From: a candidate division FCPU426 bacterium
Lineage (GTDB): Bacteria > Oederibacteriota > PGYV01 > Palsa-1178
Direction: 5' to 3'
Assembly: GCA_963840035.1 (NCBI GenBank)
Contig: CAWIXE010000002.1
Coordinates: 960,001-1,024,000 of the forward strand
DNA length: 64,000 nucleotides
The translations under genes were made by a program, and so were the position numbers. Below are positions 34,720-59,197 of this stretch, piece by piece (positions within the stretch are counted from its first letter, which is position 1; each line of letters opens with the position of its first letter). The notes below the pieces were generated by a model, which searched no databases, was not told the DNA's origin, and saw only the letters and a list, made by a program, of their open reading frames with translations.

Positions 34720-34879
34720 GTTTGTCATTGCGAGGAGGCGTTTTTGTAATTTGCCGACGAAGTCCTTCGACTTCGCTCAGGACCATGAGCCTGTCGAATG
34801 GCAATCCCGCTGTTCCAGAAGGAGAAAACGCGATTGCTTCGTCGCCATAAGTCAACTACGGTTCCTCGCAATGACAAAC
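34720..34879. repeat. Composite REP-like element, family A (copy 1)
   Basis: 17-bp terminal inverted repeat gtttgtcattgcgagga/tcctcgcaatgacaaac; internal hairpins; second copy at 50617-50765. Confidence 0.9.
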
Positions 34880-37369: not shown

Positions 37370-39295
37370 CTATTTTAGGATTACCATCTTTTTTGTTATC
37401 GTTTTACCCTGCGCCGATACCTTTATCAGGTACACGCCGCTTGCGGCTTTCATTCCGCGCTCATTGTCAAGGTTCCATACAACTTCGTTAATCCCCGGCC
37501 GGGTGGCCGCGGCTGTAAGGGTTTTAGCCCAGACCGGCTTATTATTGATATCGGTAATCAACATACCCGCCTCACAGCTTTCCTTTAGGGGGAACCTTAT
37601 CGTTGTAAAATCCCGGCACGGGTTTGGATAGTTATAAGTCTCTGCCGGGTCAAGGGTCTCATAACGAGATTCAACAACTATTGGCGCCGGATTTTTATCC
37701 GCAAGGACAAAAACCCTAGCGCATTTCTTGCGGGTGTCAATGGCATACTCAACGCCGCATTTCCCGCAGTAAATAATGACACCTTCCGGGAAACCCCTGG
37801 TTAAGAACAACCTGAATAAATTGTCGGCAATTACGCCAAAGTTGGACTTATTGCATCCTTTTTCAGCCATATTGAATTCGCATGATTTTATGGCATGGCC
37901 CTTTGACGGCAGTTCTATATAAATCTTTTCAAGCTTTGTAAAATGGTCATGGGACATCCTGAACCTGAAAACATGCATGCATTTAACTGCTGTCGTTGCC
38001 GGAGTTATTTCGGTTGTGGGCACTTGTGTAGGCATCACGGTTGCCGTCTCTTTAATTATTACAACCACTGTCGCTGTTTCAGTTGGTGTTTGTGTAAATG
38101 TTTCTGTATCAACAGGCGTTTCAGTAAACGTTTCAGTATTGGTTGGCGTTTCAGTAAACGTTTCAGTATTGGTTGGCGTTTCAGTAAACGTTTCAGTATT
38201 GGTTGGCGTTTCAGTGAAGATTTCAGTATTGGTTTGTGTTTCAGTGAAAGTCTCAGTATCAGCAGGAGTCTCCGTGAACGTCTCCGTGGCTGTAAATGTT
38301 TCCACAGGCAGCTGCGTCGGTTCTTCAATACGCAGTTCAAAAACAGCTACGCCTTCAGGATAGTTAAACTGCCCCGGCAACGGGCCCTTTACAGCCCCGA
38401 AACTCTTTTCAAACAGTCCATCGGAATTAAATTTCTGTACCCTGTTATTGCCGGCGTCAGCCACATATACATAACCCTCTGAATCCACTGATATGCCGTA
38501 TATGTCGCCAAACTGCCCCGCAGCCGCGCCTTTGCTTCCCCATTTTAATTCAAACGCGCCCTCGCGCGAGAACCTCTGCACCCTGTAATTATTCGCGTCA
38601 GCCACATATACCCTGCCGCTGCTGTCGATTGCGGCGGCGCGCGGGTAATTGAACTTGCCTTCCGCCGACCCTATTCCGCCGATTATCTGAAGCGCGTTGC
38701 CGAACGCGTCAAGTTTTTTAACCCTGTTATTTAAAGTATCACATACATATATCAGTCCTGTAACGGTGTCAACTGCCACACCCTGGGGGTTATTGTAGTC
38801 CATGATACCGCTGCCGGCCTTTGTTGAGCCAAAAGTCATAGCCCATGTACCGTCAGCGTTTAAGACCTGTATTCTGTTGTTTCCGGTGTCAGCCACTACC
38901 ACGCGTTCAAGCCCGTCAGTGACTATAACTGCAATGCTGTTCGGGCTGGAAAAACCGCCATTAAGCTTGCTGCTTGCCGGCCCGCCCCAGGTCCCGCGCC
39001 AGTTTCCTGAAGTGTCAAATACCTGCAGCCTGTTATTACCCGTATCAGCTACATATATAAGGCCGCTTGCCATTCCTGCCGCAATGGAACCCGGATAACT
39101 AAACTGGCTTACCCCGCTGCCTTTTGAGCCCCATGACATAATAACATTGCCGTCAAAATCCATTGATTGGATCCTGTAATTTGAGGTATCAGAGATGAAT
39201 ATCGAGCGGATTGTCTGGGCTTGTGTATTATTTGCCAGGAGTAAAAGTACTGTAAGGCTGGTCAGCGTTTGTAGGAGTGATTTTTCTGTTTTCAT
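37370..39295 (-). CDS. Secreted NHL-repeat protein with Thr-rich linker and T9SS-type-A/FlgD-Ig C-terminal domain
   Basis: Six NHL repeats (YVADTGNNRIQ); TETFTETPTN repeats; YNYPNP...WNL.N..G...ASGVYL...KKMVILK; AGGAGGTG RBS before 39295. Confidence 0.85.
   Translation of the reverse strand: MKTEKSLLQTLTSLTVLLLLANNTQAQTIRSIFISDTSNYRIQSMDFDGNVIMSWGSKGSGVSQFSYPGSIAAGMASGLIYVADTGNNRLQVFDTSGNWRGTWGGPASSKLNGGFSSPNSIAVIVTDGLERVVVADTGNNRIQVLNADGTWAMTFGSTKAGSGIMDYNNPQGVAVDTVTGLIYVCDTLNNRVKKLDAFGNALQIIGGIGSAEGKFNYPRAAAIDSSGRVYVADANNYRVQRFSREGAFELKWGSKGAAAGQFGDIYGISVDSEGYVYVADAGNNRVQKFNSDGLFEKSFGAVKGPLPGQFNYPEGVAVFELRIEEPTQLPVETFTATETFTETPADTETFTETQTNTEIFTETPTNTETFTETPTNTETFTETPTNTETFTETPVDTETFTQTPTETATVVVIIKETATVMPTQVPTTEITPATTAVKCMHVFRFRMSHDHFTKLEKIYIELPSKGHAIKSCEFNMAEKGCNKSNFGVIADNLFRLFLTRGFPEGVIIYCGKCGVEYAIDTRKKCARVFVLADKNPAPIVVESRYETLDPAETYNYPNPCRDFTTIRFPLKESCEAGMLITDINNKPVWAKTLTAAATRPGINEVVWNLDNERGMKAASGVYLIKVSAQGKTITKKMVILK
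38076..38300. repeat. Intragenic 30-bp tandem repeat (TETFTETPTN)
   Basis: ggcgtttcagtaaacgtttcagtattggtt near-perfect core with degenerate flanking units. Confidence 0.9.
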
Positions 39296-39471: not shown

Positions 39472-41610
39472 TTAAAAATTATAGGTTAATGATATTCCCA
39501 CATTTTCCATATCCAGCATGGGCGCAAACCCTATCTTATTTTCCTTTGCTATTCTTTCGCTTCTGTTGGTATAAACCGCGTTGTAAACCGCGGTATAGCC
39601 GGGCGCGGAAGCCACATCAGCAAGATATGAAATTCCAAATAAAGCAATACCCGCATAGCGCATAAAATCCTGCGTCGTATTCCCTGTTTTTGTCCCCGGG
39701 TTGGCGAGGTATAACACCGCGCCAAGCGCTTCAACGCCTGCCAGAGTAAACGCCGTTGAATAATTTTCCGCGTAAAAATTACCCGCGCCATGCGCGAGCA
39801 GTCCGGGGCCGGCCGCTATTAAAAACGCGATGCCCGGTTCCTTTTCATCTTTCTTTTCCGTTACCTTATACGGGCTGTTCGGGCAAAGAAGCTGTTTGTA
39901 ATATTCCGAATTGACATTATCGGTATGCAGCAGCGAGCCATAAAGGTCTATGCACCTCATGACGGTGTAAACGCCGATTGCGGAATACATAAAACCCTGC
40001 GCGATCTTTTTATTATCATCGCCGGCTTTTCCGTTATAAATCATTCCCACCCCGTATGTAATGCCCGTTAAAATCGGCGTGGCAATAAGCAGCTTAAGCG
40101 CTGTCTCGTTATCGCCCGCCCACCAGTGCCCTGCTCCGGGAATAATTCCGGCGGTAAGCGAGAATACGGAAGTAAGGGCCGGGTCTTTGTATTCCACCCT
40201 TTCCTTTTCAACTTTAAGCTCCATCGTTTTTATCTTATTAAGGTACAGCTCCGCGTTCTCGGTTGCCACAAAAGGAGCCGTGACATAATCAGTCAAAAGC
40301 CCCGCCGCCATCATGCCGGCTCCTGCTGACATAAGCGCGTAATCGGATTTTTCCGTATTTTCAAATTTACCGTTGATTATGGCGCCGGCCGTGATAAGCA
40401 TGCCGCCCACTATGGTAAGCGACGAAGACGCGGGCGTCCATGTCTGCAGCCTGCTCCGCGAATAGAAATTACCGAACCCGGCGTAAAGCAGGTTTATGGG
40501 AAAAAGGTCTATGTACGAAAACATATGGGCCGAGAAAGGCGATTTAAACTCCTCATCAACATTCCTCCCCGCGTAAATCTTGTCCATACCCGCCGCGTGC
40601 GACGCCTCAAGTTTTGTGAGGTATGACGCGGTGGAAACATCGCCCGGATTATAAGACAGGTATTTTTTATAGAAAACTATTGCCTGCTCTTTATTGCCGA
40701 AAGAAACATAACAGTTGCCGAGGCGCTGATACGCCTGGTATATGCCCGCGTTGAGTTTTACAACCTCGGAATAGGCGTAGAATGCCTGCTTGTAGTTGCG
40801 CTGAGATTCCAGGGCCAGCCCTTTTTTATAATACTCCTGCGCCTTTGCCTTATTATCGTCAACCGGCGCTATTTTACCCGCTTCTTCAGCCAGTTTTTTA
40901 TTTTGTTCTTCAAGTTTTTTCGCGTTTTCCTGCTGTTTTTTCTCGCTCTCGCGCTGCTGCTCTTCAAGCTGTTTCTGAGCGTCCTTCTGCTGCTGTTCAT
41001 ACTGGCGCTGCTGTTCCTCGGTGCGTTTCTTCGCGTCCTGCTGCTGTTGTTCATACTGACGCTTCTGTTCCTCAGTACGGTTTTTGGCGTCCTGTTGCTG
41101 CTGTTCGTACTGGCGTTTCTGTTCTTCAGTACGGTTCTTCGCGTCTTTCTGCTGCTGTTCATACTGCCGTTGCTGCTCTTCAGTTCGTTTTTTTGCGTCC
41201 TGTACCTGCTGTTCATTCTTTCGTTTCTGTTCTTCAGCCTGTTTCTTAGCTTCATTTAAGCGCTCTTCATAGCGTTTCTGGCTGTCATCAGCCGCCATTT
41301 TTGAGTCTTTATTCTTCTGTTCGACAGCCTTTAACTGTTCTTCCTTTTTTGCCTTCAGCGCTTCCTGATTCTTTTTATAGGCTTCCTGCCTTGCTTTATA
41401 ATCAGCAAGCTTCTTATTATAAGCCTGCTGTGTAGCCTGCGCCACTGCCGCCTTTATCTTAGAAACTACAGGCTTTACAGTTTTGACTGGAACCGCTTTA
41501 ACCGCAGGTTTAACCGTAGGTATTGCCGTAGGCTTAACCGTAGAAGCAGCCGCTCCAAAGAGCATATTTGCCGAAGCCAAAAGCACAATTAGCAGTATAT
41601 ATTTTCTCAT
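39472..41610 (-). CDS. Exported protein: 18-aa-repeat coiled coil, TPRs, repeated hydrophobic hairpin domains
   Basis: Signal peptide; DAK.RTEEQ.RQYEQQQ repeats; TPR; three (P)GxG(H/N)(F/W)(Y/W) modules; ends ISLTYNF. Confidence 0.75.
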   Translation of the reverse strand: MRKYILLIVLLASANMLFGAAASTVKPTAIPTVKPAVKAVPVKTVKPVVSKIKAAVAQATQQAYNKKLADYKARQEAYKKNQEALKAKKEEQLKAVEQKNKDSKMAADDSQKRYEERLNEAKKQAEEQKRKNEQQVQDAKKRTEEQQRQYEQQQKDAKNRTEEQKRQYEQQQQDAKNRTEEQKRQYEQQQQDAKKRTEEQQRQYEQQQKDAQKQLEEQQRESEKKQQENAKKLEEQNKKLAEEAGKIAPVDDNKAKAQEYYKKGLALESQRNYKQAFYAYSEVVKLNAGIYQAYQRLGNCYVSFGNKEQAIVFYKKYLSYNPGDVSTASYLTKLEASHAAGMDKIYAGRNVDEEFKSPFSAHMFSYIDLFPINLLYAGFGNFYSRSRLQTWTPASSSLTIVGGMLITAGAIINGKFENTEKSDYALMSAGAGMMAAGLLTDYVTAPFVATENAELYLNKIKTMELKVEKERVEYKDPALTSVFSLTAGIIPGAGHWWAGDNETALKLLIATPILTGITYGVGMIYNGKAGDDNKKIAQGFMYSAIGVYTVMRCIDLYGSLLHTDNVNSEYYKQLLCPNSPYKVTEKKDEKEPGIAFLIAAGPGLLAHGAGNFYAENYSTAFTLAGVEALGAVLYLANPGTKTGNTTQDFMRYAGIALFGISYLADVASAPGYTAVYNAVYTNRSERIAKENKIGFAPMLDMENVGISLTYNF
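40960..41250. repeat. Intragenic 54-bp tandem repeat
   Basis: Encodes about five QDAKNRTEEQKRQYEQQQ-like units. Confidence 0.85.
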
Positions 41611-42429: not shown

Positions 42430-42493
42430 GTAGAGACACAGCTTGCTGTGTCTCGCCTTTCAACGTCTGAGACGCAGCAAGCTGCGTCTCTAC
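42430..42493. repeat. GTAG-type REPIN, family B (copy 1)
   Basis: gtagagacacagcttgctgtgtctc-gcctttcaacgtct-gagacgcagcaagctgcgtctctac, 64 bp. Confidence 0.9.
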
Positions 42494-42548
42494 AAAAATC
42501 CGACTCATCAAGTAGTTCTTAGAATTGCCGTATTACATTTAAAAGCAA

Positions 42549-43245: not shown

Positions 43246-43309
43246 GTAGAGACACAGCTTGCTGTGTCTCGCCCTTCAACGTCTGAGACGCAGCAAGCCG
43301 CGTCTCTAC
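43246..43309. repeat. GTAG-type REPIN, family B (copy 2)
   Basis: 62/64 identical to 42430-42493, same orientation. Confidence 0.9.
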
Positions 43310-43324
43310 AAAAAACAGAACAGG

Positions 43325-48399: not shown

Positions 48400-48492
48400 A
48401 GCTTAAAACTGAAAGCTTAAAACTGAAAATTGAGTCAAAACCGGACTTGAAATATTATTTCATTTTCAGTTTTCAGCTTTAAACTTTAAATT
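48400..48492. repeat. 7-bp-period inverted array (ARCTKAA / TTMAGYT)
   Basis: agcttaa aactgaa agcttaa aactgaa aattga ... tttcatt ttcagtt ttcagct ttaaact ttaaatt. Confidence 0.85.
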
Positions 48493-48496
48493 TGTC

Positions 48497-49309
48497 TTAC
48501 GACCCTATATGTATCGGGTCGACTATCTTCTTAATCAGCACTATGACCGACAGCGCCGTTATATAACTGGTTTTAGGGTTGCGCGGCGACGGAAGATTCT
48601 CCGATATGACCCTGAAACGGCCGAACTCGCCTTCGACTATTATTTCGTGCATATTTGAATTAATGAAAGGGTCTATGACTATCTTTACTTTTGTCCTATC
48701 CGGCCCAATTCCTGCGATGCTTAACGTGGCTGCCACGTTCACGTTTGCCGGGAAATGCACCACTGCTTCCCTTGCTGACCCGTCGAACACGACAGTTTCC
48801 GTGGTAATAGCATCAAGGTTAATCTTCATCTTTTCAAGGTATTCGTTTCCCTTAAACGCCTGCGGCGGTTTGCGGGTAATAAGCGTGACTGAAGTCAGTC
48901 CGCTGAGTTTGGCCGCGTCAAGTCCGTCAATCCCCACCACGGCGCCGGACGGGACATAAATATTTATCTTCTGTTTCCTTGCCTCCTCCACGAGGTCCAT
49001 GCAGTCGAGCACTCCTCCGGCAGAGAGGAACATGATGTCCCTTTTATGCTTTATCGCCAGCTCAAAAAAGCCCCTTACGGCGGATTTAACCGCGCATTCC
49101 ACAACCAGGTCGCAGGACTTTATGAGGTCTTCGACATCCATGAATATCGGTTTTACGCTTTTATACTTTGCGGAAAGCGCGTCAAACTTTGACTTGTCCT
49201 TGTCATAGCAGGCGTGCAAAGTAACATTTATGTCCCCTTTGTCAATGGCCATGGCTATTTCGCTTCCGATGTTACCGCACCCAATTACCCCGAGTTTTTT
49301 CGTGTCCAT
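48497..49309 (-). CDS. nadX: L-aspartate dehydrogenase
   Basis: IGCGNIG, VVECA, PSGA..G.D, RKPP, FPANVNVAA, NPKTS. Confidence 0.93.
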   Translation of the reverse strand: MDTKKLGVIGCGNIGSEIAMAIDKGDINVTLHACYDKDKSKFDALSAKYKSVKPIFMDVEDLIKSCDLVVECAVKSAVRGFFELAIKHKRDIMFLSAGGVLDCMDLVEEARKQKINIYVPSGAVVGIDGLDAAKLSGLTSVTLITRKPPQAFKGNEYLEKMKINLDAITTETVVFDGSAREAVVHFPANVNVAATLSIAGIGPDRTKVKIVIDPFINSNMHEIIVEGEFGRFRVISENLPSPRNPKTSYITALSVIVLIKKIVDPIHIGS

Positions 49310-49318
49310 TTTTTCCCT

Positions 49319-49666
49319 CTACTTTATCCTGTTATTTTTATCCACTTTCACGATGCGCGGTTTAAAGGCCGACCTTTGCCCCGCCTCGACCAATCCGTAT
49401 GACACAATGATAATGACGTCATTTTTTTCGGCGAGCCTGGCGGCCGCGCCGTTTATGCATATCTGCCCCGAACCTTTTTTTCCTTTTATGACATATGTCT
49501 CAAACCGGTTCCCGTTATTGATATTAAGGACATGCACTTTCTCATTTTCAAAAATATCCGCCGCTTCCATGAGCTTCTCGTCTATGGTAATGGACCCCTC
49601 GTATTCAAGGTGTTTATCCGTCACACTCGCGCGGTGAATTTTTGATTTCAGCATTTCTACAAGCAT
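49319..49666 (-). CDS. panD: Aspartate 1-decarboxylase
   Basis: [15 protein letters not shown] (Gly24-Ser25 when started at 49666), NGAAAR. Confidence 0.97.
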
Positions 49667-49685
49667 TGGAACCTCCATAAGGGCG

Positions 49686-49717
49686 AATTTTCAATTTTAA
49701 ATTTTATATTTTCAATT
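49686..49717. repeat. 7-bp-period array (AATTTTN)
   Basis: aattttc aatttta aatttta tattttc aatt. Confidence 0.75.
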
Positions 49718-49727
49718 AACACCGGAA

Positions 49728-50579
49728 CTACCCAGCTTGAATTATCGTATTGTCAATCAACCTGGTTTTGCCCACATATATCGCTGCCGCGATTAAAGCG
49801 CTGCCGGTTATCTTTTCGAGCGGCTTTAATGTCTTAGCGTCGACTATCTCCACGTAATCTATCTCTATGTTTGATTCCTTTAGTTTCCTTCTTATTTCCT
49901 TCTTCAGCGTATCGCAGGACTTTTCCCCGAGTTCTATCATGCTTTCCGCCATCTGCAGCGACTTATAAAGCGCCGGCGCGGTATTGCGCTCCTCAGGCGT
50001 TAAGTACATGTTCCTGGAGCTCAGCGCGAGGCCGTCCTTTTCCCTGAAAATCGGGCACACCACAACCTCGGTCTGATAGTTCAGGTCGGCGGCCATCTTT
50101 GTCAGCACTACGGACTGCTGCGCGTCTTTCTGGCCCAGGTAAAGCCTGTCGGGTTTTACTATATTAAGGAGCTTAGTCACTATGGTAGTAACGCCCTTAA
50201 AATGTTCGGGCCTTGTAATGCCGCAAAGGCATTTTGTCATTTCATTTTCGAGCGCCACGTACGTGGCGTACCCTTCCGGGTACATCATGGCGTTGTCCGG
50301 CGTAAACACGCAGTCAACTTTTTTCGACGCCTTTAGCATTTTCAGGTCCTTCTTAATGGGCCTGGGATACTTTTCAAAATCCTCGCCGGCCCCGAACTGT
50401 GAGGGATTCACATAAATGCTTACTATGACCTTTTCATTTTGCTTATCAGCTGCCTCAACAAGCGACATGTGCCCTTCATGAAGCGCGCCCATAGTCGGGA
50501 CGAACCCGATGGTATGGCTGCGTTTCTTCAGCTTTGCCGTGTATTCATGCATTTCACTTAAAGTACCGATAATTTTCAT
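49728..50579 (-). CDS. panC: Pantoate--beta-alanine ligase
   Basis: VPTMGALHEGH, RPEHFKGV, GQKDAQQ, LALSSRN, RLIDN. Confidence 0.97.
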   Translation of the reverse strand: MKIIGTLSEMHEYTAKLKKRSHTIGFVPTMGALHEGHMSLVEAADKQNEKVIVSIYVNPSQFGAGEDFEKYPRPIKKDLKMLKASKKVDCVFTPDNAMMYPEGYATYVALENEMTKCLCGITRPEHFKGVTTIVTKLLNIVKPDRLYLGQKDAQQSVVLTKMAADLNYQTEVVVCPIFREKDGLALSSRNMYLTPEERNTAPALYKSLQMAESMIELGEKSCDTLKKEIRRKLKESNIEIDYVEIVDAKTLKPLEKITGSALIAAAIYVGKTRLIDNTIIQAG

Positions 50580-50616
50580 TTCGCTCCTTATAAAATTACA
50601 CTCATTTTCTCAGCCA

Positions 50617-50765
50617 GTCATTGCGATGAGGCGCCTATTACTTCGCCGACAAAGTCCTTCGACTTCGCTCAGGGCCATGAGCCTGTCGAATGGCAATCTG
50701 GCTGTTTTAGAACTTAAACCAGATTGCTTCGTCGCCATAAATCAAATACGGCTCCTCGCAATGAC
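50617..50765. repeat. Composite REP-like element, family A (copy 2)
   Basis: gtcattgcga...tcgcaatgac ends; same internal ccttcgacttcgctcagg..catgagcctgtcgaatgg module as 34720-34879. Confidence 0.9.
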
Positions 50766-50788
50766 AGTCCTTAACATTCACGCCATGC

Positions 50789-51577
50789 TTAATAATAATT
50801 CTTTTTACCCGGGAACTTCCTGCCTCTGACGTCAGCCGAGAATTTTTTTACGGCTGTCACGGTGCGCGCCGCTATCTTTTCATATTGTTTTACAAACGAC
50901 GGCTTGAAATCCTCAAACGCTCCGAGCATGTCGTGCGTGACAAGCACCTGTCCGTCGCACCATGGCCCCGCGCCTATGCCGATGACCGGCACTTTTACAG
51001 CTTTTGTTATCTCAGCGGCTGTTTTTGCCTCTGTTTTTTCCAGGACAATCGAGAAAACGCCGGCTTTTTCCAGCTGCATGGCTTCCTGTATAAGGCGCTG
51101 CTTGTCTTCCTCTGTCCTTCCCTGCACCGGATACCCGCCGTATTTATTCACTGACTGGGGCTGAAGCCCTATGTGGCCCATGACAGGCACGCCTATGGCT
51201 ACCAGCGCCTTAACCTGCGGGATTATCTCTGCCCCGCCTTCTATTTTTACGGCGGACGCGCCTGATTCTTTCATTAACTTTCCGCAGTTCTTCAGCGCGT
51301 CTTTTACGGAAGCCTGATACGTCATGAACGGCATATCAGCCACAACCATGGTTTTTAACGCGCCGCGCTTTACCGATTTCACGTGGTAAATAACCTCTTC
51401 AAGCGTAACCGGAAGAGTGTCTTTTATCCCCTGAAAAACCATTCCAAGGGAATCGCCCACCAGTATTATATCGACGCCTGATTTTTCGAGGTATGACGCC
51501 ATCAGGTAATCATACGCGGTAAGCATAACTATCTTCTGTTTTGACTTAAGTGATTTGACGAACGGGGCGGTAAGCAT
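50789..51577 (-). CDS. panB: 3-methyl-2-oxobutanoate hydroxymethyltransferase
   Basis: MLTAYD, LVGDSLG, ADMPF, GHIGLQPQ, GIGAG..CDGQVLV. Confidence 0.97.
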   Translation of the reverse strand: MLTAPFVKSLKSKQKIVMLTAYDYLMASYLEKSGVDIILVGDSLGMVFQGIKDTLPVTLEEVIYHVKSVKRGALKTMVVADMPFMTYQASVKDALKNCGKLMKESGASAVKIEGGAEIIPQVKALVAIGVPVMGHIGLQPQSVNKYGGYPVQGRTEEDKQRLIQEAMQLEKAGVFSIVLEKTEAKTAAEITKAVKVPVIGIGAGPWCDGQVLVTHDMLGAFEDFKPSFVKQYEKIAARTVTAVKKFSADVRGRKFPGKKNYY

Positions 51578-52225
51578 TTATTTCTCCTGCCTCGGGGTGT
51601 AATAGTTTATGCCGCCTTTAATATTCAGCACATAATTTTTTATCATCTGGTAGGCCTTTTTGTCAGAGGCAAAATCCACCTCGTCAGTATTTACAATGGC
51701 AAGCGGCGCCGATGTAAACGTGGAGAAAAAGTGGTTATAGGCCTGCGTGAGGTTGTATAAGTATTCCTTGGAAACTGATTTTTCAAAACTGCGTCCGCGC
51801 TTTTTTATCCTTTCCATAAGCGTTTCAATGGAAGCCTGCAGATAAATCACCAGATCCGGCTTTGCCAGGTTGCCTTCGTTGACAACGCTGGAGTATATCT
51901 TTTCATACAGGTTAAGTTCGTTTTCATTTAGGGTGATATACGCGAATATGCGGTCCTTTTCTATAAGGTAATCCGCCACTATCTTTTTTGAAAAGAGGTC
52001 CATCTGCTTTAAGGGTTCCTGCTGCATGGCGCGGTTGACCAGGAATGTAAGCTGGGTCTGAAGGGCAAACGTGTCCATATCCTTATAAAATTTCTCAAGG
52101 AAAGGGTTATTGTCAACCTGCTCTAATACGATCTTTGCCTCAAGGTCGTCCGCAAGCATCTTGGCAAAAGTGGTCTTGCCGACACCGAGGACCCCCTCAA
52201 CCGCTATATAGTGAAAATCCTTCAT
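51578..52225 (-). CDS. Deoxynucleoside kinase
   Basis: VEG..GVGKTT, NPFLEKFY, PDLVIYL, RI.KRGR.FE. Confidence 0.92.
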   Translation of the reverse strand: MKDFHYIAVEGVLGVGKTTFAKMLADDLEAKIVLEQVDNNPFLEKFYKDMDTFALQTQLTFLVNRAMQQEPLKQMDLFSKKIVADYLIEKDRIFAYITLNENELNLYEKIYSSVVNEGNLAKPDLVIYLQASIETLMERIKKRGRSFEKSVSKEYLYNLTQAYNHFFSTFTSAPLAIVNTDEVDFASDKKAYQMIKNYVLNIKGGINYYTPRQEK

Positions 52226-52708
52226 TTACAGCTCTCCAATCTTTTTTACGGATTCGCTGAAATTGCCATTTTTTAAGAGTTCTTTTATTGTTAATTTAAG
52301 GGCCGGATGAACGAAATCCGCCGCTATTTCCGATAAAGGCTCAAGCACAAACCTTCTTGCCGCTATTTCAGGATGCGGAATTTTAAGTTTTTCGCTGTCT
52401 ATAATTATATTCTTATAAAACAATATGTCAATATCTATAATACGCTGGCCCCACCTGTCCGACCTGACCCTTCCCATGTCTTTTTCAATCTTTTTGGCGG
52501 TTTCCAGCAGTTTTTCAGGGTCAAGCTGGGTTTCCACCTGCAGGCAGATATTGTTGTAATCAGGCTGGCTTTTGACGCCTACCGGCTCAGATTCATATAA
52601 ACCTGTCTTTTTTATTATGGTAACGCCATTCTTTTCAAGAAGATGAATAGCGGTACGCAGGTTGTCCGCCCTGCTGCCAATGTTGGTCCCGAGACAAAGG
52701 TATATCAT
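52226..52708 (-). CDS. folK: 6-hydroxymethyl-7,8-dihydropterin pyrophosphokinase
   Basis: LGTNIG, R..RWG.R.IDIDIL, IPHP..RRFVLEPL. Confidence 0.95.
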   Translation of the reverse strand: MIYLCLGTNIGSRADNLRTAIHLLEKNGVTIIKKTGLYESEPVGVKSQPDYNNICLQVETQLDPEKLLETAKKIEKDMGRVRSDRWGQRIIDIDILFYKNIIIDSEKLKIPHPEIAARRFVLEPLSEIAADFVHPALKLTIKELLKNGNFSESVKKIGEL

Positions 52709-53868
52709 TACTTCTTCAGACCCACCTTTTTAAGCCTGTCTATGGCTTTCTGTATCTTATCCTCTTCCACTGTCAGCGCGATACGGAAATACCTGTCGCC
52801 CGAGAGGCCGAATCCGATGCCGGGCGTGATTACCATATCAGCTTCCTCAAGCACCTTTGTGCAGAATTCCATGGATGTGAAGCCTTCCGGCACTTTTACC
52901 CAAAGATATAGCGTGCCTTTTGATTCAAGGACATCATAACCGAGCGTCTTTAAACCGGCTGTAAAAGCGGCTGCCCTGTTGCGGTAAAGCCCGCGTATCT
53001 TAGCCGCTTCATCATCACAGTTTGCAAGCGTCCACGCGGCTGTTTCCTGTATGGCCGTAAATGTCCCCGAGTCCATGTTTTCCTTTACCTTGCCAAGCCC
53101 GTCTATGATCTTTTCCGCGCCCACGGCAAAGCCTATCCTCCATCCCGTCATGTTGTATGTTTTTGACATGGAGTAAAACTCGATTACGTGGTCCTTTGCC
53201 CCCTGTATCTGCAGCATGGAAATGGGCGGCGCCCCGAAATAAATTTCCGAATAGGGCGCGTCCTGGGCGATTATGAAATCGTACTTTTCCGCGTAAGAGA
53301 GCGCTTCCTCATAAAACTGATAATCAGCCATGGCTGATGTCGGGTTATTCGGATAGTTTAACCACATTATTTTTGTCTTTTTAAAGACATCTTCCGGTAT
53401 CAGGCTGAAATCAGGGAGAAAATTATTTTCCGCGATGAGCGGCATGACATGCGTCTTTCCTCCGGATAAAAGCGTGCCGGAAGTATAACCGGGATATCCG
53501 GGATCGGGCACAAGCACTATGTCGCCCGGATTAATGAACGCAAGCGGCAGGTGCGTGATACCGTCCTTTGCCCCTATCAGGCAGGCAACTTCCTTATCAG
53601 TGATGGCGACATCAAACCGCTTGTCCATCCAGTCAACAACAGCCTGCTTAAACTGCTTGCTTCCGCGGCCGATAGGATACTGGTGGTTCGACGCCTTTTG
53701 CACAGACTCTTTGAAGTTGTCAATGATGGCCTGCGGAGTCGGCCTGTCCGGGTCGCCTATGCCAAGGTCCAATATGTCCCTGCCCGCCTCTCGCGCGGCT
53801 TTTTTCTTCTTATCCAGTTCAACAAAGACATAGGGCGGTAAAGACTTTAGATTGTTTGAAAATTCCAT
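52708..53868 (-). CDS. dapL: LL-diaminopimelate aminotransferase
   Basis: Class I aminotransferase: LPPYVF, GIGDPD.PTP, YPNNPT, SKTYNMTGWRIG, KENMDSG; sits in the dap cluster. Confidence 0.85.
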   Translation of the reverse strand: MEFSNNLKSLPPYVFVELDKKKKAAREAGRDILDLGIGDPDRPTPQAIIDNFKESVQKASNHQYPIGRGSKQFKQAVVDWMDKRFDVAITDKEVACLIGAKDGITHLPLAFINPGDIVLVPDPGYPGYTSGTLLSGGKTHVMPLIAENNFLPDFSLIPEDVFKKTKIMWLNYPNNPTSAMADYQFYEEALSYAEKYDFIIAQDAPYSEIYFGAPPISMLQIQGAKDHVIEFYSMSKTYNMTGWRIGFAVGAEKIIDGLGKVKENMDSGTFTAIQETAAWTLANCDDEAAKIRGLYRNRAAAFTAGLKTLGYDVLESKGTLYLWVKVPEGFTSMEFCTKVLEEADMVITPGIGFGLSGDRYFRIALTVEEDKIQKAIDRLKKVGLKK

Positions 53869-53883
53869 AACGTTCTCCTTCTT

Positions 53884-53950
53884 GGTAACCGCAACCTTTA
53901 GGCCGCGATACCGGGTATATTTTGTCCGCAGGCTGAAGCCTGCGACTACC
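53884..53950. repeat. Degenerate family C REPIN
   Basis: ggtaaccgcaacctttaggccgcg ... cgcaggctgaagcctgcgactacc. Confidence 0.7.
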
Positions 53951-53966
53951 GGAATTTAATGTATAA

Positions 53967-54728
53967 CTAGCGTACGTAGTTAATAAGTCGTCCTATTTCG
54001 CCTATTTCAACTTCCACTTTATCCCCGCGTTTCATGGGGCCAATCCCCGCTGGGGTTCCGGTGCTTATCACGTCTCCCCTGTTTAAGGTCATAACTTGCG
54101 ATACAAAGCTCACTATTTTTCTCATTTTAAATATAAATTTCGACGTGTTCGAATCCTGCTTCAATTCTCCGTTTAAGTAAAGTTTTATATCCTGTTTGTC
54201 AGGATTTATATCTTTAACTATGTAAGGCCCGATCGGGGCGAATGTGTCGAACGACTTTGCCCTTGTCCACTGTCCGTCCACGCTCTGAAGGTCACGCGCG
54301 GTAATGTCGTTAAAGCACGTATACCCCAGGACGTTCATGTCCACCATGTCCTCGGAGATGTTTTTGCATGTGTTCTTGATTATTACCGCAAGCTCCGCCT
54401 CAAAATCCACGCGCGACGACATTTCCGGGTATATTATCTCGTCCATGTGGCCTATTAATGACGACGGCGGTTTCAAAAATATTACCGGTTCCTTTGGCTT
54501 GTCAGCTTTCATTTCCTTCGCGTGGTCGGAATAATTAAGCCCCACGCAAATAATCTTTGAAGGTTCGCATGGCGGCAGTATGCGCACCCTGCCGAACTCA
54601 ATGACATTGGGCATGACCTTATACTGCGTATATATGTCGCCTTCTATATCGGTAATGTTCTTGTTATTATTAACTATACCCCACTGCGCCGGACTGCCTT
54701 CTATCGAATAACGCACGAACTTAAGCAT
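53967..54728 (-). CDS. Fumarylacetoacetate hydrolase family protein
   Basis: KIICVGLNY..H, FEAEL, NDITARDLQ, AKSFDTF.PIGP, TGTPAG. Confidence 0.93.
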   Translation of the reverse strand: MLKFVRYSIEGSPAQWGIVNNNKNITDIEGDIYTQYKVMPNVIEFGRVRILPPCEPSKIICVGLNYSDHAKEMKADKPKEPVIFLKPPSSLIGHMDEIIYPEMSSRVDFEAELAVIIKNTCKNISEDMVDMNVLGYTCFNDITARDLQSVDGQWTRAKSFDTFAPIGPYIVKDINPDKQDIKLYLNGELKQDSNTSKFIFKMRKIVSFVSQVMTLNRGDVISTGTPAGIGPMKRGDKVEVEIGEIGRLINYVR

Positions 54729-54746
54729 GAAGACTCCTCAATGATC

Positions 54747-54864
54747 GGGAATGGGGAATTGGGAATGGGGAATGGCAGACATAACATCCAGCCACAAACC
54801 CAAAAACCAAATCCTTACGCCCTTTATTATTGCCATTCCCTATTGCCCATTCCCTATTCCCCAC
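54747..54864. repeat. 7-bp-period inverted array (GGGAATG / CATTCCC) with a second heptamer run inside
   Basis: gggaatg gggaatt gggaatg gggaatg ... ccacaaa cccaaaa accaaat ... ccattcc ctattgc ccattcc ctattcc ccac; abuts the dapB stop. Confidence 0.9.
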
Positions 54865-55644
54865 TTACAGCCCCAACACATCCGCCATCGTATACATGCC
54901 CGGCTGTTTGCCGGCTACAAACTTCGCCGCCTTTAAAGCGCCCATTGCCAGTGTTTCCCTGGAAAAAGCCGTATGTGATATTTCAAGCTTATCGCCCATG
55001 GAACCGAATATGACTGTGTGCTCGCCGACTATGCCTCCGGCGCGTACCGCGAAGACTCCGATTTGATCCCTGTTTCTTTCATTATTCCTGCCGTCCCTGC
55101 CAAAGACCATGTTGGCTTTCGGGTCAAGCCCTTTTTCCCTGAGGATTACTTCCGCCGTTGTTAAAGCCGTGCCTGACGGCGCGTCTTTTTTCATCCTGTG
55201 ATGGGATTCCACTATGTCAATATCATAATCTTCTTTTAATGCCTTTGTAGCCTCTTTGAGCAGCTTCCACATGACATTAATGCCGACGGAATAGTTTGAG
55301 GACAGGACTATGGGTATTTTCTTGGACGCGGTCTCAATCTCAAATAATTCATTCGCGTCAAATCCCGTAGTGCCGATCACCATGGGTTTCTTCGCCTCTA
55401 CAAGCGCTTTTATGTGGTTAAGCGTGGCAACAGGCGTGGTAAAGTCTATAAAAACATCCGTGCCCGCTACGCCGGACTTCAGGTCATCGCTGATGGTAAA
55501 CCCGTTTATGTTTCCGCCGACAGCTTTGTTTCCTTTCGCCTCAAGCAGCATGGAAATACGGAAATCATCCGGCTGCTGCGCGGCTGAAGATATAAGAGCC
55601 TGCCCCATACGGCCGGCCGCCCCGGAAATGCCTACTTTTAACAT
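54865..55644 (-). CDS. dapB: 4-hydroxy-tetrahydrodipicolinate reductase
   Basis: GAAGRMG, IDFT, GTTG, ESHHRMKKDAPSGTA. Confidence 0.97.
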   Translation of the reverse strand: MLKVGISGAAGRMGQALISSAAQQPDDFRISMLLEAKGNKAVGGNINGFTISDDLKSGVAGTDVFIDFTTPVATLNHIKALVEAKKPMVIGTTGFDANELFEIETASKKIPIVLSSNYSVGINVMWKLLKEATKALKEDYDIDIVESHHRMKKDAPSGTALTTAEVILREKGLDPKANMVFGRDGRNNERNRDQIGVFAVRAGGIVGEHTVIFGSMGDKLEISHTAFSRETLAMGALKAAKFVAGKQPGMYTMADVLGL

Positions 55645-55661
55645 AAAATCCTCCTTGTTAG

Positions 55662-55731
55662 TTCAAAGCCCAGAGACCAAAGCTCAAGTAAAACCTGACT
55701 TGGGCTTTTTAACCTTGAGCTATGGGCTTGA
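55662..55731. repeat. 7-bp-period inverted array (CYCAAAG / CTTTGRG-like)
   Basis: ttcaaag cccagag accaaag ctcaag ... cttggg ... ccttgag ctatggg cttga; ends 1 bp from the dapA stop. Confidence 0.75.
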
Positions 55732-55732
55732 T

Positions 55733-56611
55733 TTATATCTTTATCCCGTAATCCTTCATAGCTTTCTTAATCTTCTCGAGGTTTTCTCCGTCCGGAACAG
55801 TCATCGGAAGCCTGATCTCGGTCTCTACTAATCCCATTAAGGCGGCGGCTGCTTTCACCGGGATCGGGTTTGTCTCTATGAACATCGCTTTTATCAGCGG
55901 GAACATTCTGTGGTGCATGGCCTGCGCTTTCTTAATGTCGCCTTTTTCAAAAGCCGTCACCATTTCTTTTACATCCTTCGGGATAATATTCGCGACAACC
56001 GATATAATACCCTTTCCGCCTATGGCCAGCAGCGGGAGCGTGAGCGCGTCATCGCCCGAGAGCACGTCAAAATCAGGGCCGCACTGTTCTATGACTTCGC
56101 TCATCTGAGCGAGGTCTCCGCTTGCTTCCTTGACGCCTTTTATATTCGGGCATTCCTTGGCAAGCCTGGCAAGCGTTGAAGTGGCGACATTAACCCCTGT
56201 CCTGCCCAGTATGTTATAAACTATGACAGGTATCTTTACGGACTGCGAAATAGCTTTAAAGTGTTCATATAAACCCTTTTGCGTGGGCTTGTTGTAGTAA
56301 GGGTTTACCACGAGGGCCGCGTCAGCGCCCGCCTTTTCCGCCGCCTGCGTGTATTCGATGGCTTCAGCCGTGGAATTCGACCCTGTTCCGGCCATGACCT
56401 TCATGCGCTTGTTCACAAGTTTTACTGTAAGCGCGATTAAGTGTTCATGTTCTTCAGGCGTTAAAGTCGGCGACTCGCCCGTTGTTCCCGCGGGCACAAT
56501 CCCGTCAGTGCCGGCGGCAGCGTGCATTTCAATGAGCCTCTTATAAGCTTCCTCGTCGAGCTTCCCGTTCTTAAACGGGGTTACGATTGCTACGTAGGAT
56601 CCGCTAAACAT
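55733..56611 (-). CDS. dapA: 4-hydroxy-tetrahydrodipicolinate synthase
   Basis: GTTGES, PYYNKPTQ.G, YN..GRT, GVKEASG, SGDD, ETNPIPVK. Confidence 0.98.
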   Translation of the reverse strand: MFSGSYVAIVTPFKNGKLDEEAYKRLIEMHAAAGTDGIVPAGTTGESPTLTPEEHEHLIALTVKLVNKRMKVMAGTGSNSTAEAIEYTQAAEKAGADAALVVNPYYNKPTQKGLYEHFKAISQSVKIPVIVYNILGRTGVNVATSTLARLAKECPNIKGVKEASGDLAQMSEVIEQCGPDFDVLSGDDALTLPLLAIGGKGIISVVANIIPKDVKEMVTAFEKGDIKKAQAMHHRMFPLIKAMFIETNPIPVKAAAALMGLVETEIRLPMTVPDGENLEKIKKAMKDYGIKI

Positions 56612-56625
56612 GATAGACCTCCAGA

Positions 56626-56654
56626 AATTTTCAATTTTATATTTTCAATTTTCT
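56626..56654. repeat. 7-bp-period array (AATTTTN)
   Basis: aattttc aatttta tattttc aattttc; next to the dapF stop. Confidence 0.75.
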
Positions 56655-56655
56655 A

Positions 56656-57468
56656 TTACCATTTTAATGCTTCAGGACCCGCCATGCCTTCGGCTACAAC
56701 CCTTGCGTTACCTTCAAGAAAAACATCATTAATTATGCCGCCGTTATCCTTGAAATATATCGTCAGTTTTCCGCCTTTGGCAAAGAGCGTTACCGGCGAT
56801 TTTGCCACGCCGTTTAAATACAGCGCGATGCCCGCGGCTGTCGCGCCTGTGCCGCACGCGTAAGTTTCAGCTTCCACTCCGCGCTCATACGTCCTTATGG
56901 CGAATGAATTCTTGCCTGTTTTCTGGACAAAATTTACGTTTGTGCCCTTAGGGCCGAACACCCTGTGAAACCTGAGCATCCTTCCCGTCTTTGCCACATC
57001 AACTTTTTTTATATCCTTAACCGGCACCACAAAATGCGGCACTCCGGTATTCATGAAAGCGCCTTCCACTCCGCCCGCTGTAACCGCTTTTTTTATGTCA
57101 AAAGGGTCTGTCATGCCAAGTTTCACTTCTCCGTTGGGCTTTACCTGGGCCGTATGCGGCCCGTCATTGGCCATGAACTTAACCGTCGTTCCGGAGTATC
57201 CCTTCAGGTAAGAGAACCTGGAAATGCACCTCGCGCCGTTTCCGCACATGTCAGCTTCTTTGCCGTTGTTGTTATAAAACTTCATGGTAAAATCAAATCC
57301 CTTTGAAGGCTTATTCAAAAGTATAAGCCCGTCAGCGCCTATGGAAAACCTGTTAGCGCAGAGCGCGGCTATTTCCTTAGCGGAAAGTTTTATCTTCCCC
57401 TTGTAATTGTCTATCACTATAAAATCATTCCCGTTGCCGGACATCTTGGTGAAGCGCAGTTCTTTCAT
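56656..57468 (-). CDS. dapF: Diaminopimelate epimerase
   Basis: KM.G.GNDF, MCGNGARC, GVPH, YERGVE.ET.ACGTG. Confidence 0.97.
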   Translation of the reverse strand: MKELRFTKMSGNGNDFIVIDNYKGKIKLSAKEIAALCANRFSIGADGLILLNKPSKGFDFTMKFYNNNGKEADMCGNGARCISRFSYLKGYSGTTVKFMANDGPHTAQVKPNGEVKLGMTDPFDIKKAVTAGGVEGAFMNTGVPHFVVPVKDIKKVDVAKTGRMLRFHRVFGPKGTNVNFVQKTGKNSFAIRTYERGVEAETYACGTGATAAGIALYLNGVAKSPVTLFAKGGKLTIYFKDNGGIINDVFLEGNARVVAEGMAGPEALKW

Positions 57469-57481
57469 GAATTACTCCTTT

Positions 57482-57565
57482 GATATTTGATATGCGATAT
57501 CGGATATTAGATATATATCCTTCTGCCTTCAACGTTTATATCTAATATCAAATATCCAATATCAC
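57482..57565. repeat. 7-bp-period inverted array (GATATNN / NNATATC)
   Basis: gatattt gatatgc gatatcg gatatta gatat ... atatcta atatcaa atatcca atatc. Confidence 0.9.
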
Positions 57566-57573
57566 ACATGCCC

Positions 57574-58815
57574 TTAAATCTCGTTTTCAACCAGCGTATC
57601 GTAAGTCTCGCGTTTCCTTATGAGTTTGTGCTCGCTTCCGTCCACCATCACCTCAGCCGCGCGCGGCCTTGAGTTGTAATTGGACGCCATTACCATGCCG
57701 TACGCGCCTGTGGAGCGCACGCACAGGAGCTCCCCGTTTTCTATCTCAGGCATGTGCCTGTCTTTGGCGAGGAAATCCCCGCTCTCGCATATCGGGCCCA
57801 CTATGTCGCATACCTGAAGCTTCGAGCCCTTCTTTACATTTACAGGCAGTATCTTGTGGTAAGAACCGTATAATGACGGCCTTATCAAGTCGTTCATGCC
57901 GGTATCGGTTATGATGAAGTTCTTCACGCGCCCTTTTTTATTGTAAGTCACCCTGGAAACAAGCACACCAGCGTTGCCGATGATGAATCTACCCGGCTCA
58001 AGAATCAGCTTTATATCCAGCCCTTCAAGGTACGGCTTTACAGCCTTGGCAAAGACATCGGCTGTCGCCGGTTTTTCCTCGTTGTAAATTATGCCGAGCC
58101 CGCCGCCGATATTAAGGTACTGTATCCGCACGCCTTCCTTACGCAGCTGCTTTACAAACTCGACTATCTTCGTCACCGCGCTTATGTACGGTATGGGCGT
58201 TGTTATCTGCGAGCCTATATGCATATCAACGCCGATCAGATTTATGTGCTTTAACTTCTTAGCGCTCTTATAAAGCCCCAGCGCCAGGTTTATGTCTATG
58301 CCGAACTTTGATTCCTTCTTGCCTGTATTCACGTAAGCGTGCGTTAAAGCGTCGACGTCAGGATTAATACGCACCGCGATATCAGCCTTCCTTTTCATGG
58401 ACTTGGCTATATCATTTATGGCCTTTAACTCCTCCTGCGACTCCACGTTAAACATAAGTATGCCTGACTTTAAGGCGTACTTTATCTCTTCCTCGGTCTT
58501 GCCGACACCCGCGTATACTATCTTCTTGGGGTCCACACCGGTCCTTAAAGCCCTGAAAAGCTCGCCGCCCGAGACTATATCAAACCCCGCGCCTTCCTTT
58601 TTCATTTCCTTAAGTATGGCGCCGTTTGAATTGGCCTTAACCGAGTAGCATATAAGGGTATCCATACCCGCAAAAGCGTCCTTAACCTTCCTGAAATGCT
58701 CTAAAAAGGTCCTCTTGCTGTAGACATAAAGCGGCGTGCCGTACTTCTCAGCCAGCACGTTAATATCCACATTTTCCGCGTATAAAGTGTTCTTTTTGTA
58801 GTTAAAATAGTCCAT
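57574..58815 (-). CDS. lysA: Diaminopimelate decarboxylase
   Basis: YSVKANSN, DIVSGGE, HIGSQI, EPGR, GPICESGD, NYNSRPR; GGAGG RBS before ATG 58815. Confidence 0.98.
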   Translation of the reverse strand: MDYFNYKKNTLYAENVDINVLAEKYGTPLYVYSKRTFLEHFRKVKDAFAGMDTLICYSVKANSNGAILKEMKKEGAGFDIVSGGELFRALRTGVDPKKIVYAGVGKTEEEIKYALKSGILMFNVESQEELKAINDIAKSMKRKADIAVRINPDVDALTHAYVNTGKKESKFGIDINLALGLYKSAKKLKHINLIGVDMHIGSQITTPIPYISAVTKIVEFVKQLRKEGVRIQYLNIGGGLGIIYNEEKPATADVFAKAVKPYLEGLDIKLILEPGRFIIGNAGVLVSRVTYNKKGRVKNFIITDTGMNDLIRPSLYGSYHKILPVNVKKGSKLQVCDIVGPICESGDFLAKDRHMPEIENGELLCVRSTGAYGMVMASNYNSRPRAAEVMVDGSEHKLIRKRETYDTLVENEI

Positions 58816-58853
58816 TTTAAGCCTCCGTAAATGCGTAAGTGTATAGTTTAAGA

Positions 58854-58882
58854 AATATAACATAATTGCGTTTTTTAGTCAA
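58854..58882 (-). promoter_or_regulatory. Sigma70-like promoter of the lysA-dap-pan run
   Basis: TTGACT-17bp-TATATT with extended TG. Confidence 0.65.
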
Positions 58883-58900
58883 TTTATAGATATAATGGCT

Positions 58901-58932
58901 GATTCGGGATTCTGGATTCTAAATTCTGGATT
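58901..58932. repeat. 7-bp-period array (GATTCTR)
   Basis: gattcgg gattctg gattcta aattctg gatt. Confidence 0.75.
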
Positions 58933-58983
58933 AAAACATCCCAAAACAATTTTACGCTTTATTTTAAAGCAATTTCCGGAAAA

Positions 58984-59178
58984 CGGCAGACGGGAAGCTG
59001 ATTTTTGAATAAGCTAAACGGGCACATAGTCATGCTTCACCTCCTGGTATATCCCAATCAAGCCGGCCCGCCAGACCAAAAACCAACCGTCAATTATATC
59101 GCCTCAGCATCTCACATTATCACTGCAGCCTCCAGCACACCCCGTCAGCTAATTCAAAAATCAGCTTCCCGCCTGCCG
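58984..59178. mobile_element. MITE-like element or long hairpin with about 38-bp imperfect terminal inverted repeats
   Basis: cggcagacgggaagctgatttttgaataagctaaacggg ... cccgtcagctaattcaaaaatcagcttcccgcctgccg; no clear target-site duplication. Confidence 0.5.
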
Positions 59179-59197
59179 CTTCTACGTGGTCTGTCTT

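Follow-up and report, generated by a model that had tools for sequence, protein, structure and literature searches.

The window analyzed here, a 64,000-nucleotide (nt) stretch of contig CAWIXE010000002.1 from a candidate division FCPU426 bacterium, carries the gene run lysA-dapF-dapA-dapB-FAH-dapL-folK-dnk-panB-panC-panD-nadX-ABC (FAH, fumarylacetoacetate-hydrolase family; ABC, ABC ATPase), the whole of which lies on the minus strand. A repeat element occupies each of the eight open gaps of this operon for lysine and vitamin B5. On balance, we favor the reading that these elements are recent insertions, and that the six of them armed with tandem heptamers are likely gene-less kin of cassettes encoding a four-helix-bundle protein (TIGR02436/PF05635), likely placed 0-12 nt behind a stop codon. 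The tie between the heptamer elements and these cassettes is probable, and it is highly probable that the heptamer elements have multiplied as tolerated or selfish DNA. Bacterial heptamer repeats have long been orphans, and so has the "23S rRNA intervening-sequence" family of four-helix-bundle proteins; filled and empty sites link the two in this genome.

Repeats in the open junctions of the operon

Repeats are present in 8 of the 12 junctions, which are all those with an open gap (44-209 nt): lysA/dapF (105 nt), dapF/dapA (44), dapA/dapB (88), dapB/FAH (136), FAH/dapL (98), panB/panC (209), panC/panD (61) and nadX/ABC (113). The four repeat-free junctions have gaps of -1 to 9 nt (dapL/folK -1, folK/dnk 0, dnk/panB 0 and panD/nadX 9). 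A preliminary description of this DNA had claimed a repeat in every open junction and overlaps or gaps of at most 10 bp in the others, and both statements are borne out, although the former involves some circularity, since it was the insertions that opened these junctions. The elements comprise four heptamer hairpins, two lone right arms of heptamers, and two dimers of the repetitive extragenic palindrome (REP) type:

57479..57569, minus strand, lysA/dapF heptamer hairpin, ATATTTG family, arms at about 57538-57569 and 57479-57514 (dG -27.9, z -3.9)
56626..56657, minus strand, dapF/dapA lone right arm, main AATTTTC family (129 similar intergenic regions)
55663..55732, minus strand, dapA/dapB heptamer hairpin, AAAGCCC family, degenerate, with limits set by eye (z -1.4; 19 similar intergenic regions)
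54744..54861, minus strand, dapB/FAH heptamer hairpin, AATGGGG family, arms at 54835-54861 and 54744-54775 (dG -52.5, z -3.3)
53882..53950, minus strand, FAH/dapL GTAG-type REP dimer, resembling a REP doublet hairpin (REPIN), starting 16 nt past the stop (29 similar intergenic regions)
50616..50766, minus strand, panB/panC composite TGTC-tagged palindrome, starting 22 nt past the stop (150-nt copies at 70-85% elsewhere)
49687..49717, minus strand, panC/panD lone right arm, main AATTTTC family, 10 nt past the stop (146 similar intergenic regions)
48402..48493, minus strand, nadX/ABC heptamer hairpin, AAAACTG family, arms at 48463-48493 and 48402-48433 (z -3.0; 35 similar intergenic regions)

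The repeats had been called nearly all different, which is correct insofar as the eight elements represent seven families; the lone arms of dapF/dapA and panC/panD belong to a common one. Similarly, the reported spacing of 0-10 bp from the upstream stop applies to the six heptamer elements (-2 to 10 nt), and not to the two REP-type dimers. The dapF/dapA arm touches the dapF stop and lies 14 nt from the dapA start, and the nadX/ABC arm at 48463-48493 sits 3 nt from its stop. Five elements fold with z-scores of -3.0 to -3.9, and the two lone arms form no hairpin. Similar intergenic regions occur elsewhere in the genome for all junctions, numbering 7-146 for seven of them and 2 for dapB/FAH, whose AATGGGG family is rare (5 arms genome-wide). 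The arms of lysA/dapF recur at three other loci, with differing loops. No Rfam family matched the operon at gathering scores, and no terminator-like sites were seen in its junctions.

The operon was compared with 19 loci from the same family and order; L021 (dnk frameshift) and L037 (a run of N) were left out of the comparison of junction arrays, and the detector missed a visible 8-nt array in L024. In this synteny comparison, of a kind proposed in the preliminary description, gene order is kept in the 19 loci and the junction elements are not. At the seven ancestral open junctions, array-free gaps of the relatives have medians of 11-32 nt. Arrays are present at the dap junctions in 1/19, 2/19, 4/17, 1/16 and 3/17 cases, with families unlike those of this genome, at the pan junctions in 0/15, and at dapL/folK, folK/dnk and dnk/panB in 0 of 14-15 each; 11 of the 19 loci have no array at any junction. 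None of the relatives' junctions resembles those of this genome (best score 24), and nadX and ABC are adjacent in only 2 of 8 relatives. The short array-free gaps, together with the other families found in some relatives, indicate that elements entered the junctions of a conserved operon recently and repeatedly, and did so independently in several lineages.

The arms are docked on ancestral stops. The stop of dapF has the same position as in most relatives when C-termini are compared; therefore, the arm did not create it. More generally, arms as creators of operon stops were considered and rejected, the C-termini of dapF, panC, lysA and nadX matching those of relatives within a few residues. 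DapB, used as a query against metagenomes, gave 17 loci, all at 80% identity or less. Contigs from the DNA run X1 were fragmentary; one of them, about 90% alike, shows 146 different letters at the FAH/dapL junction (window 53868-53992). In loci L054, L060, L129 and L130, right arms appear to enter the downstream reading frame and to supply N-terminal codons. Units of 8 nt occur in junction arrays or around four-helix-bundle genes in L024, L031, L032, L051, L054 and L060, so the unit is not strictly 7. In L021 (6016-6655, genome G006), an early stop interrupts dnk, possibly through a frameshift or an assembly error.

The genes of the run and a promoter-like site are located as follows:

58854..58882, minus strand, predicted sigma-70-like promoter consensus upstream of lysA (10 of 12 match, extended -10)
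57574..58815, minus strand, lysA, diaminopimelate decarboxylase (TIGR01048, 516.8 bits)
56656..57468, minus strand, dapF (TIGR00652)
55733..56611, minus strand, dapA (TIGR00674)
54865..55644, minus strand, dapB (TIGR00036)
53967..54728, minus strand, FAH-family gene (NCBIfam matches below cut-off)
51578..53868, minus strand, dapL-folK-dnk, without repeat (NCBIfam for dapL and folK; dnk a tentative name)
50789..51577, minus strand, panB (TIGR00222)
49728..50579, minus strand, panC (TIGR00018)
49319..49666, minus strand, panD (TIGR00223; start from our own gene calls)
48497..49309, minus strand, nadX, aspartate dehydrogenase (NF009830, TIGR03855)

Matches above the NCBIfam cut-off were obtained for lysA, dapF, dapA, dapB, dapL (NF006756), folK, panB, panC, panD and nadX. 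Family matches of the FAH and ABC ATPase genes stay below equivalog cut-offs, and the gene that we take to be dnk had no NCBIfam match at 1e-20. A perfect 12 of 12 sigma-70 consensus lies inside folK (window 52404-52431, minus strand) and is possibly an internal promoter for dnk-panBCD-nadX. Upstream of lysA, a further heptamer arm is found just ahead of the promoter-like site (window 58901-58927), as is a 200-nt element with inverted ends of 42 nt (window 58981-59181). Elsewhere in the window, the segments 34720-34879, 38052-38321, 40874-41305, 42430-42503 and 43246-43319 hold tandem repeats with 30-nt and 54-nt periods, two GTAG REP dimers and a second composite of the panB/panC type.

Position and build of the heptamer arms

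Arrays of period 7 are a genome-wide feature. Intergenic arrays number 663 and coding ones 44. Of the 2019 intergenic regions of at least 20 nt, 490 contain an array (score 10), against 1-3 in shuffles; control periods of 4, 5, 8, 10 and 11 gave 1-12 intergenic arrays. The arms fall into about 22 families, with a length peak at 31-32 nt. Some repeat is present in 61-76% of the co-directional gaps of at least 70 nt, and at least 8 repeats are present in 122 of the 1240 overlapping windows of 12 junctions, and in 9 of 220 when only tight operons are counted. Thus, the operon is near the top of a continuum rather than unique, a dense sample of a genome-wide process. A run of 22 junctions, taken by eye as a ribosomal-protein cluster, has no repeat.

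Of 491 co-directional junctions with arrays, 305 have the first one no more than 12 nt from the stop. The bias persists where there is room: with at least 100 nt free, 89 of 204 co-directional junctions are docked, against 15.1 expected from uniform placement, a null that ignores promoters in the free space. A sharp peak between -4 and +9 nt from the stop holds 74 of these 204. Convergent junctions with at least 40 nt free are docked in 25 of 27 cases (8.3 expected), and roomy lone arms in 66 of 98 (8.3 expected). The arms are also polar. Among 727 classified arms of 799, those within 12 nt of a stop present their outer end 319 times and their inner end 14 times, and those at starts 164 and 28 times, respectively. 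The distance-to-stop check called for in the preliminary description supports a post-stop bias across the genome. The same description had them end just before the next ribosome-binding site (RBS), which is mostly a matter of geometry: the last array is near the start in 21 of 204 roomy junctions (14.8 expected), although start-facing lone arms are enriched there (27 of 71, 9.7 expected).

REPs share the gaps with the heptamer arms and serve as an internal control, in which only the arms dock on stops and precede terminators. Within 12 nt of a stop, REP motifs of the same genome are found in 11/61, 4/57, 10/70, 4/51, 0/6 and 0/37 junctions, counts in which a motif may start inside its element. 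In junctions with a terminator, the arm comes first 51 times and the terminator 21 times; the corresponding figures for REPs are 5 and 13. Terminators lie a median of 45 nt past the stop where an arm is present and 23 nt where none is. Both the REP comparison and the docking in convergent junctions speak for a positional mechanism acting in addition to selection. Post-stop targeting, which had been proposed as an alternative to strong filtering, is supported by the roomy nulls, the polarity and the REP control as a genome-wide bias that looks like more than filtering. This genome therefore offers a direct test of the idea that mobile elements can locate where a reading frame ends.

The two arms of an element generally belong to one family (15 of 16 convergent and 121 of 139 co-directional junctions; chance 0.11), and they pair around a unique loop, apart from two minor families in which some loops are common (6/28 and 2/45 pairs). 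The 155 hairpins have terminal inverted repeats, as do miniature inverted-repeat transposable elements (MITEs). Two other traits of MITEs are absent: there is no target-site duplication (mean flank repeat 3.46 against a null of 3.46), and copies have no common internal sequence. With an arm pattern that required one canonical unit and allowed at most 7 mismatches, 134 of 183 main-family arms were distinct and none was a perfect array (10.4 expected); the same imperfect arm recurs, identical, at up to 11 sites. Partner arms carry slightly more mismatches than arms paired at random (4.44 against 4.05, P 0.009), and C-to-T changes that would preserve G-U pairs are nearly absent. A fold-back copy of the first arm as origin of the partner was considered and rejected. 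In 117 stop-docked pairs, a terminator lies in the loop 13 times and within about 120 nt after the partner arm 0 times, with similar lengths scanned. Arms that bracket host DNA would therefore fit better than a single pre-formed unit. Residual gap lengths, compared to tell ancestral loops from new ones, have a median of 45 nt; the median over every repeat-free gap is 16 nt, and over gaps that span 11-120 nt it is 36 nt. Wrapping of host genes by a single family, in the manner of a cassette, was rejected (4 of 24, P 0.10). The 31-nt pattern of the main family is found in many phyla with opposite polarity: a partner precedes the arm in 18/80 and follows it in 0/80 loci there (L168-L247), and in 0/28 and 20/28 here (G000).

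It is quite unlikely that filtering alone, that is, random intergenic insertion with survival where harmless and short operon gaps forcing a position between stop and RBS, accounts for these placements. The ancestral gaps of about 10-30 nt, RBS included, favor such a filter, as do the near-null proximity of last arrays to starts and the repeat-free run of 22 junctions. It is contradicted by the peak at the stop in roomy junctions, by the docking in convergent junctions, which lack promoters, by the REPs, which face the same filter and are mostly undocked, and by the order of arms ahead of and REPs behind terminators. An origin by local polymerase slippage and fold-back, with no mobile element, is very improbable. 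Over-representation of heptamers and a role of slippage are in print (cited in the available parts of PMC4679880 and PMC4692102), a few long perfect arrays are present, and unique loops without target duplication are compatible with it. However, arm length is fixed, perfect main-family arms are missing, identical imperfect arms are dispersed in this genome and near-identical ones across many phyla, and partner arms are of one family without being copies of each other.

Selected regulation, in which the hairpins are kept as signals for mRNA processing, stability or ribosome stalling that set enzyme ratios, is improbable as well. Five of the eight elements do fold with z of -3.0 or below, and the operon is among the fullest tight runs. 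According to the accessible parts of two reports, REPs within 15 nt of the stop lower translation in Escherichia coli (PMC12306157), and RNase III cuts the stem of an intervening sequence (IVS) bearing an open reading frame (ORF) (PMC4990558). By analogy, such effects of the junction elements on mRNA are plausible. Against selected regulation, two of the eight are lone arms without a hairpin, neither the partner-arm mismatches nor the C-to-T changes point to preserved pairing, repeats are common in wide co-directional gaps throughout the genome, and no regulatory role was found for similar arrays in the part of PMC4692102 available. The preliminary description had suggested that the elements tune gene stoichiometry. 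This is not sustained by the relatives, in which order is kept yet most loci are array-free and unrelated families occur in the same gaps; because the junctions opened through independent insertions, conserved tuning of stoichiometry is disfavored. RNase III cuts, altered stability or ribosome stalling would likely be a side-effect of the elements and not the reason for their presence.

Four-helix-bundle cassettes and the proposed origin of the elements

The tie to cassettes in the favored reading rests on the four-helix-bundle genes of this genome and its relatives. The genome has eight TIGR02436/PF05635 genes, among them those at C2:519718, C1:780744 and C1:786298, and no such cassette lies inside the window. 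Across the phylum, complementarity of the flanks exceeds the 95th percentile of controls at 22 of 35 loci (1 of 36 was skipped, its flank being too short). Cassettes occupy sites that are empty in relatives. The pyrC/carA cassette measures 544 nt, and in those relatives that have both genes adjacent (13 of 19) the gap is -4 to 47 nt; the fmdB/glmU cassette is missing from all relatives holding both genes (13 of 19), and the genes overlap in two of them. Conversely, the cassette sites of relatives are occupied in this genome by overlapping genes, a REP, or a hairpin of another family. In two families, the arms around cassettes match hairpins that carry no gene. One gene, at C2:73399 of G000, is not enclosed by arms, has a hairpin upstream and shares its upstream neighbor with three relatives (L057, L059 and L068); it is possibly a domesticated, vertically inherited copy.

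Several observations weigh against this reading. Only 4 of the 8 four-helix-bundle genes here are enclosed by inverted arms, and none was seen in this genome to be enclosed by any of the operon's five heptamer families in the same polarity. At main-family-arm loci in other phyla, a four-helix-bundle gene lies within 700 nt in 0 of 80 cases, with a positive control run, a weak result because there are about 200 arms to each cassette here. A correlation between gene count and array density (rho 0.65, 25 relatives) speaks for the tie, but it is drawn from 5-77 kb per genome and from related genomes, which as kin are not independent. Loops of the main family are similar in 3 of 903 pairs, in contrast to elements that move as a whole. 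A search for reverse transcriptases gave 0 PF00078 matches in a genome 98% complete, and no enzyme for joining the arms was identified here. Finally, the 2876 genes were called with our own script, so that start positions are approximate, and uniform-placement nulls pass over promoters.

As to mechanism, we tentatively propose that an Avd-like four-helix-bundle protein would bind an arm of about 4.5 units as single-stranded RNA or DNA. The solved homologs 2GSC and 2RLD have five chains each, and Xcc0516 is described as a homopentamer in the accessible part of its source. The protein might act where the transcript leaves the ribosome and a single strand is exposed behind the stop; the arms could then be joined in by an enzyme of the host or one acting in trans, at best guess of the Y1/HUH type. 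Purifying selection would subsequently clear insertions in genes, RBSs and promoters, and the two REP-type dimers would be ordinary REPIN/CGTC-like passengers. The specific combination of a pentamer with a post-stop single strand is rather unlikely as it stands. A bolder version, which we judge unlikely, is a transposase-free marking of gene ends: the pentamer would read arms of about 4.5 units, one unit per subunit, and pairs of the same family would be written around host 3' UTR (untranslated region) DNA behind stops, guided by the end of translation and bracketing the host terminator rather than entering as a ready-made unit. If true, the orphan 23S-IVS proteins would gain a function, bacterial heptamer repeats would be accounted for, and mobile DNA would include a class guided by translation. 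GIY-YIG proteins have 3 matches in the genome and Y1 transposases 8, two of the latter flanked by GTAG palindrome arrays; no GxxExxY/PF13366 genes were found in the genome. In the incomplete body of literature searched, no link of heptamer arrays to four-helix-bundle genes was found, and this tie is apparently unpublished.

Comparison with known repeat systems

Of the two REP-type dimers, one fits a described type and the other resembles one. GTAG and CGTC REPs are defined in PMC3733652, in the part available. On this basis, the FAH/dapL element corresponds to a REP/REPIN of the kind associated with REP-associated tyrosine transposases (RAYTs), being a GTAG-tagged short palindrome in an inverted, multi-copy dimer with 90 motif matches, none of them genic. 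Other GTAG families flank two of the Y1 genes, and a lone related motif lies near one. The panB/panC TGTC dimer resembles the CGTC type, with copies elsewhere, an inner stem and an enlarged loop. The heptamer elements are similar to REPs in that many gene-less copies exist beside few gene-bearing ones. They differ in having no GTAG or CGTC tag or short palindrome, in their tandem arms of 31-32 nt, in not being flanked by, or flanking, a Y1 gene, and in a far tighter docking on stops.

The Avd protein of diversity-generating retroelements is an S23-like pentameric barrel that binds an RNA stem-loop, according to the accessible part of 10.1101/2023.10.23.563531. A retroelement of this class comprises a reverse transcriptase with template and variable repeats, whereas no such enzyme was found in the genome and arm variation is not limited to adenines. 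In the 23S rRNA IVS of Coxiella and Leptospira that carry an ORF for S23p (PMC4990558, part available), a PF05635 protein is likewise encoded within an inverted-repeat stem loop. A gene inside a complementary stem is a property of the cassettes only, at the loci counted above. Unlike the rRNA IVS, the cassettes lie between protein genes behind stops, have heptamer arrays as arms and coexist with hundreds of gene-less copies.

The closest counterparts are heptamer repeats, for which proximity to stops is already published in Xanthomonas and Nostoc. The available part of PMC4692102 describes four-unit arrays in Xanthomonas (GGGAATC) and Nostoc that are stop-proximal, strand-polar and arranged in inverted pairs, and that of PMC4679880 describes TAACTGA arrays of Beggiatoaceae near starts. 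The elements of this genome share the 7-nt unit, the number of about four units, the intergenic position, the inverted pairs, and a polarity tied to stops or starts, with arrays near or over stop codons and host genes of no functional class; all features of the Xanthomonas/Nostoc type were found here. In the parts of these reports available, the repeats have one unit each and are considered as a G-quadruplex or a regulator site. By contrast, about 22 families, many of them AT-rich, coexist here, and they are probably connected with four-helix-bundle cassettes, for which both filled and empty sites are known.

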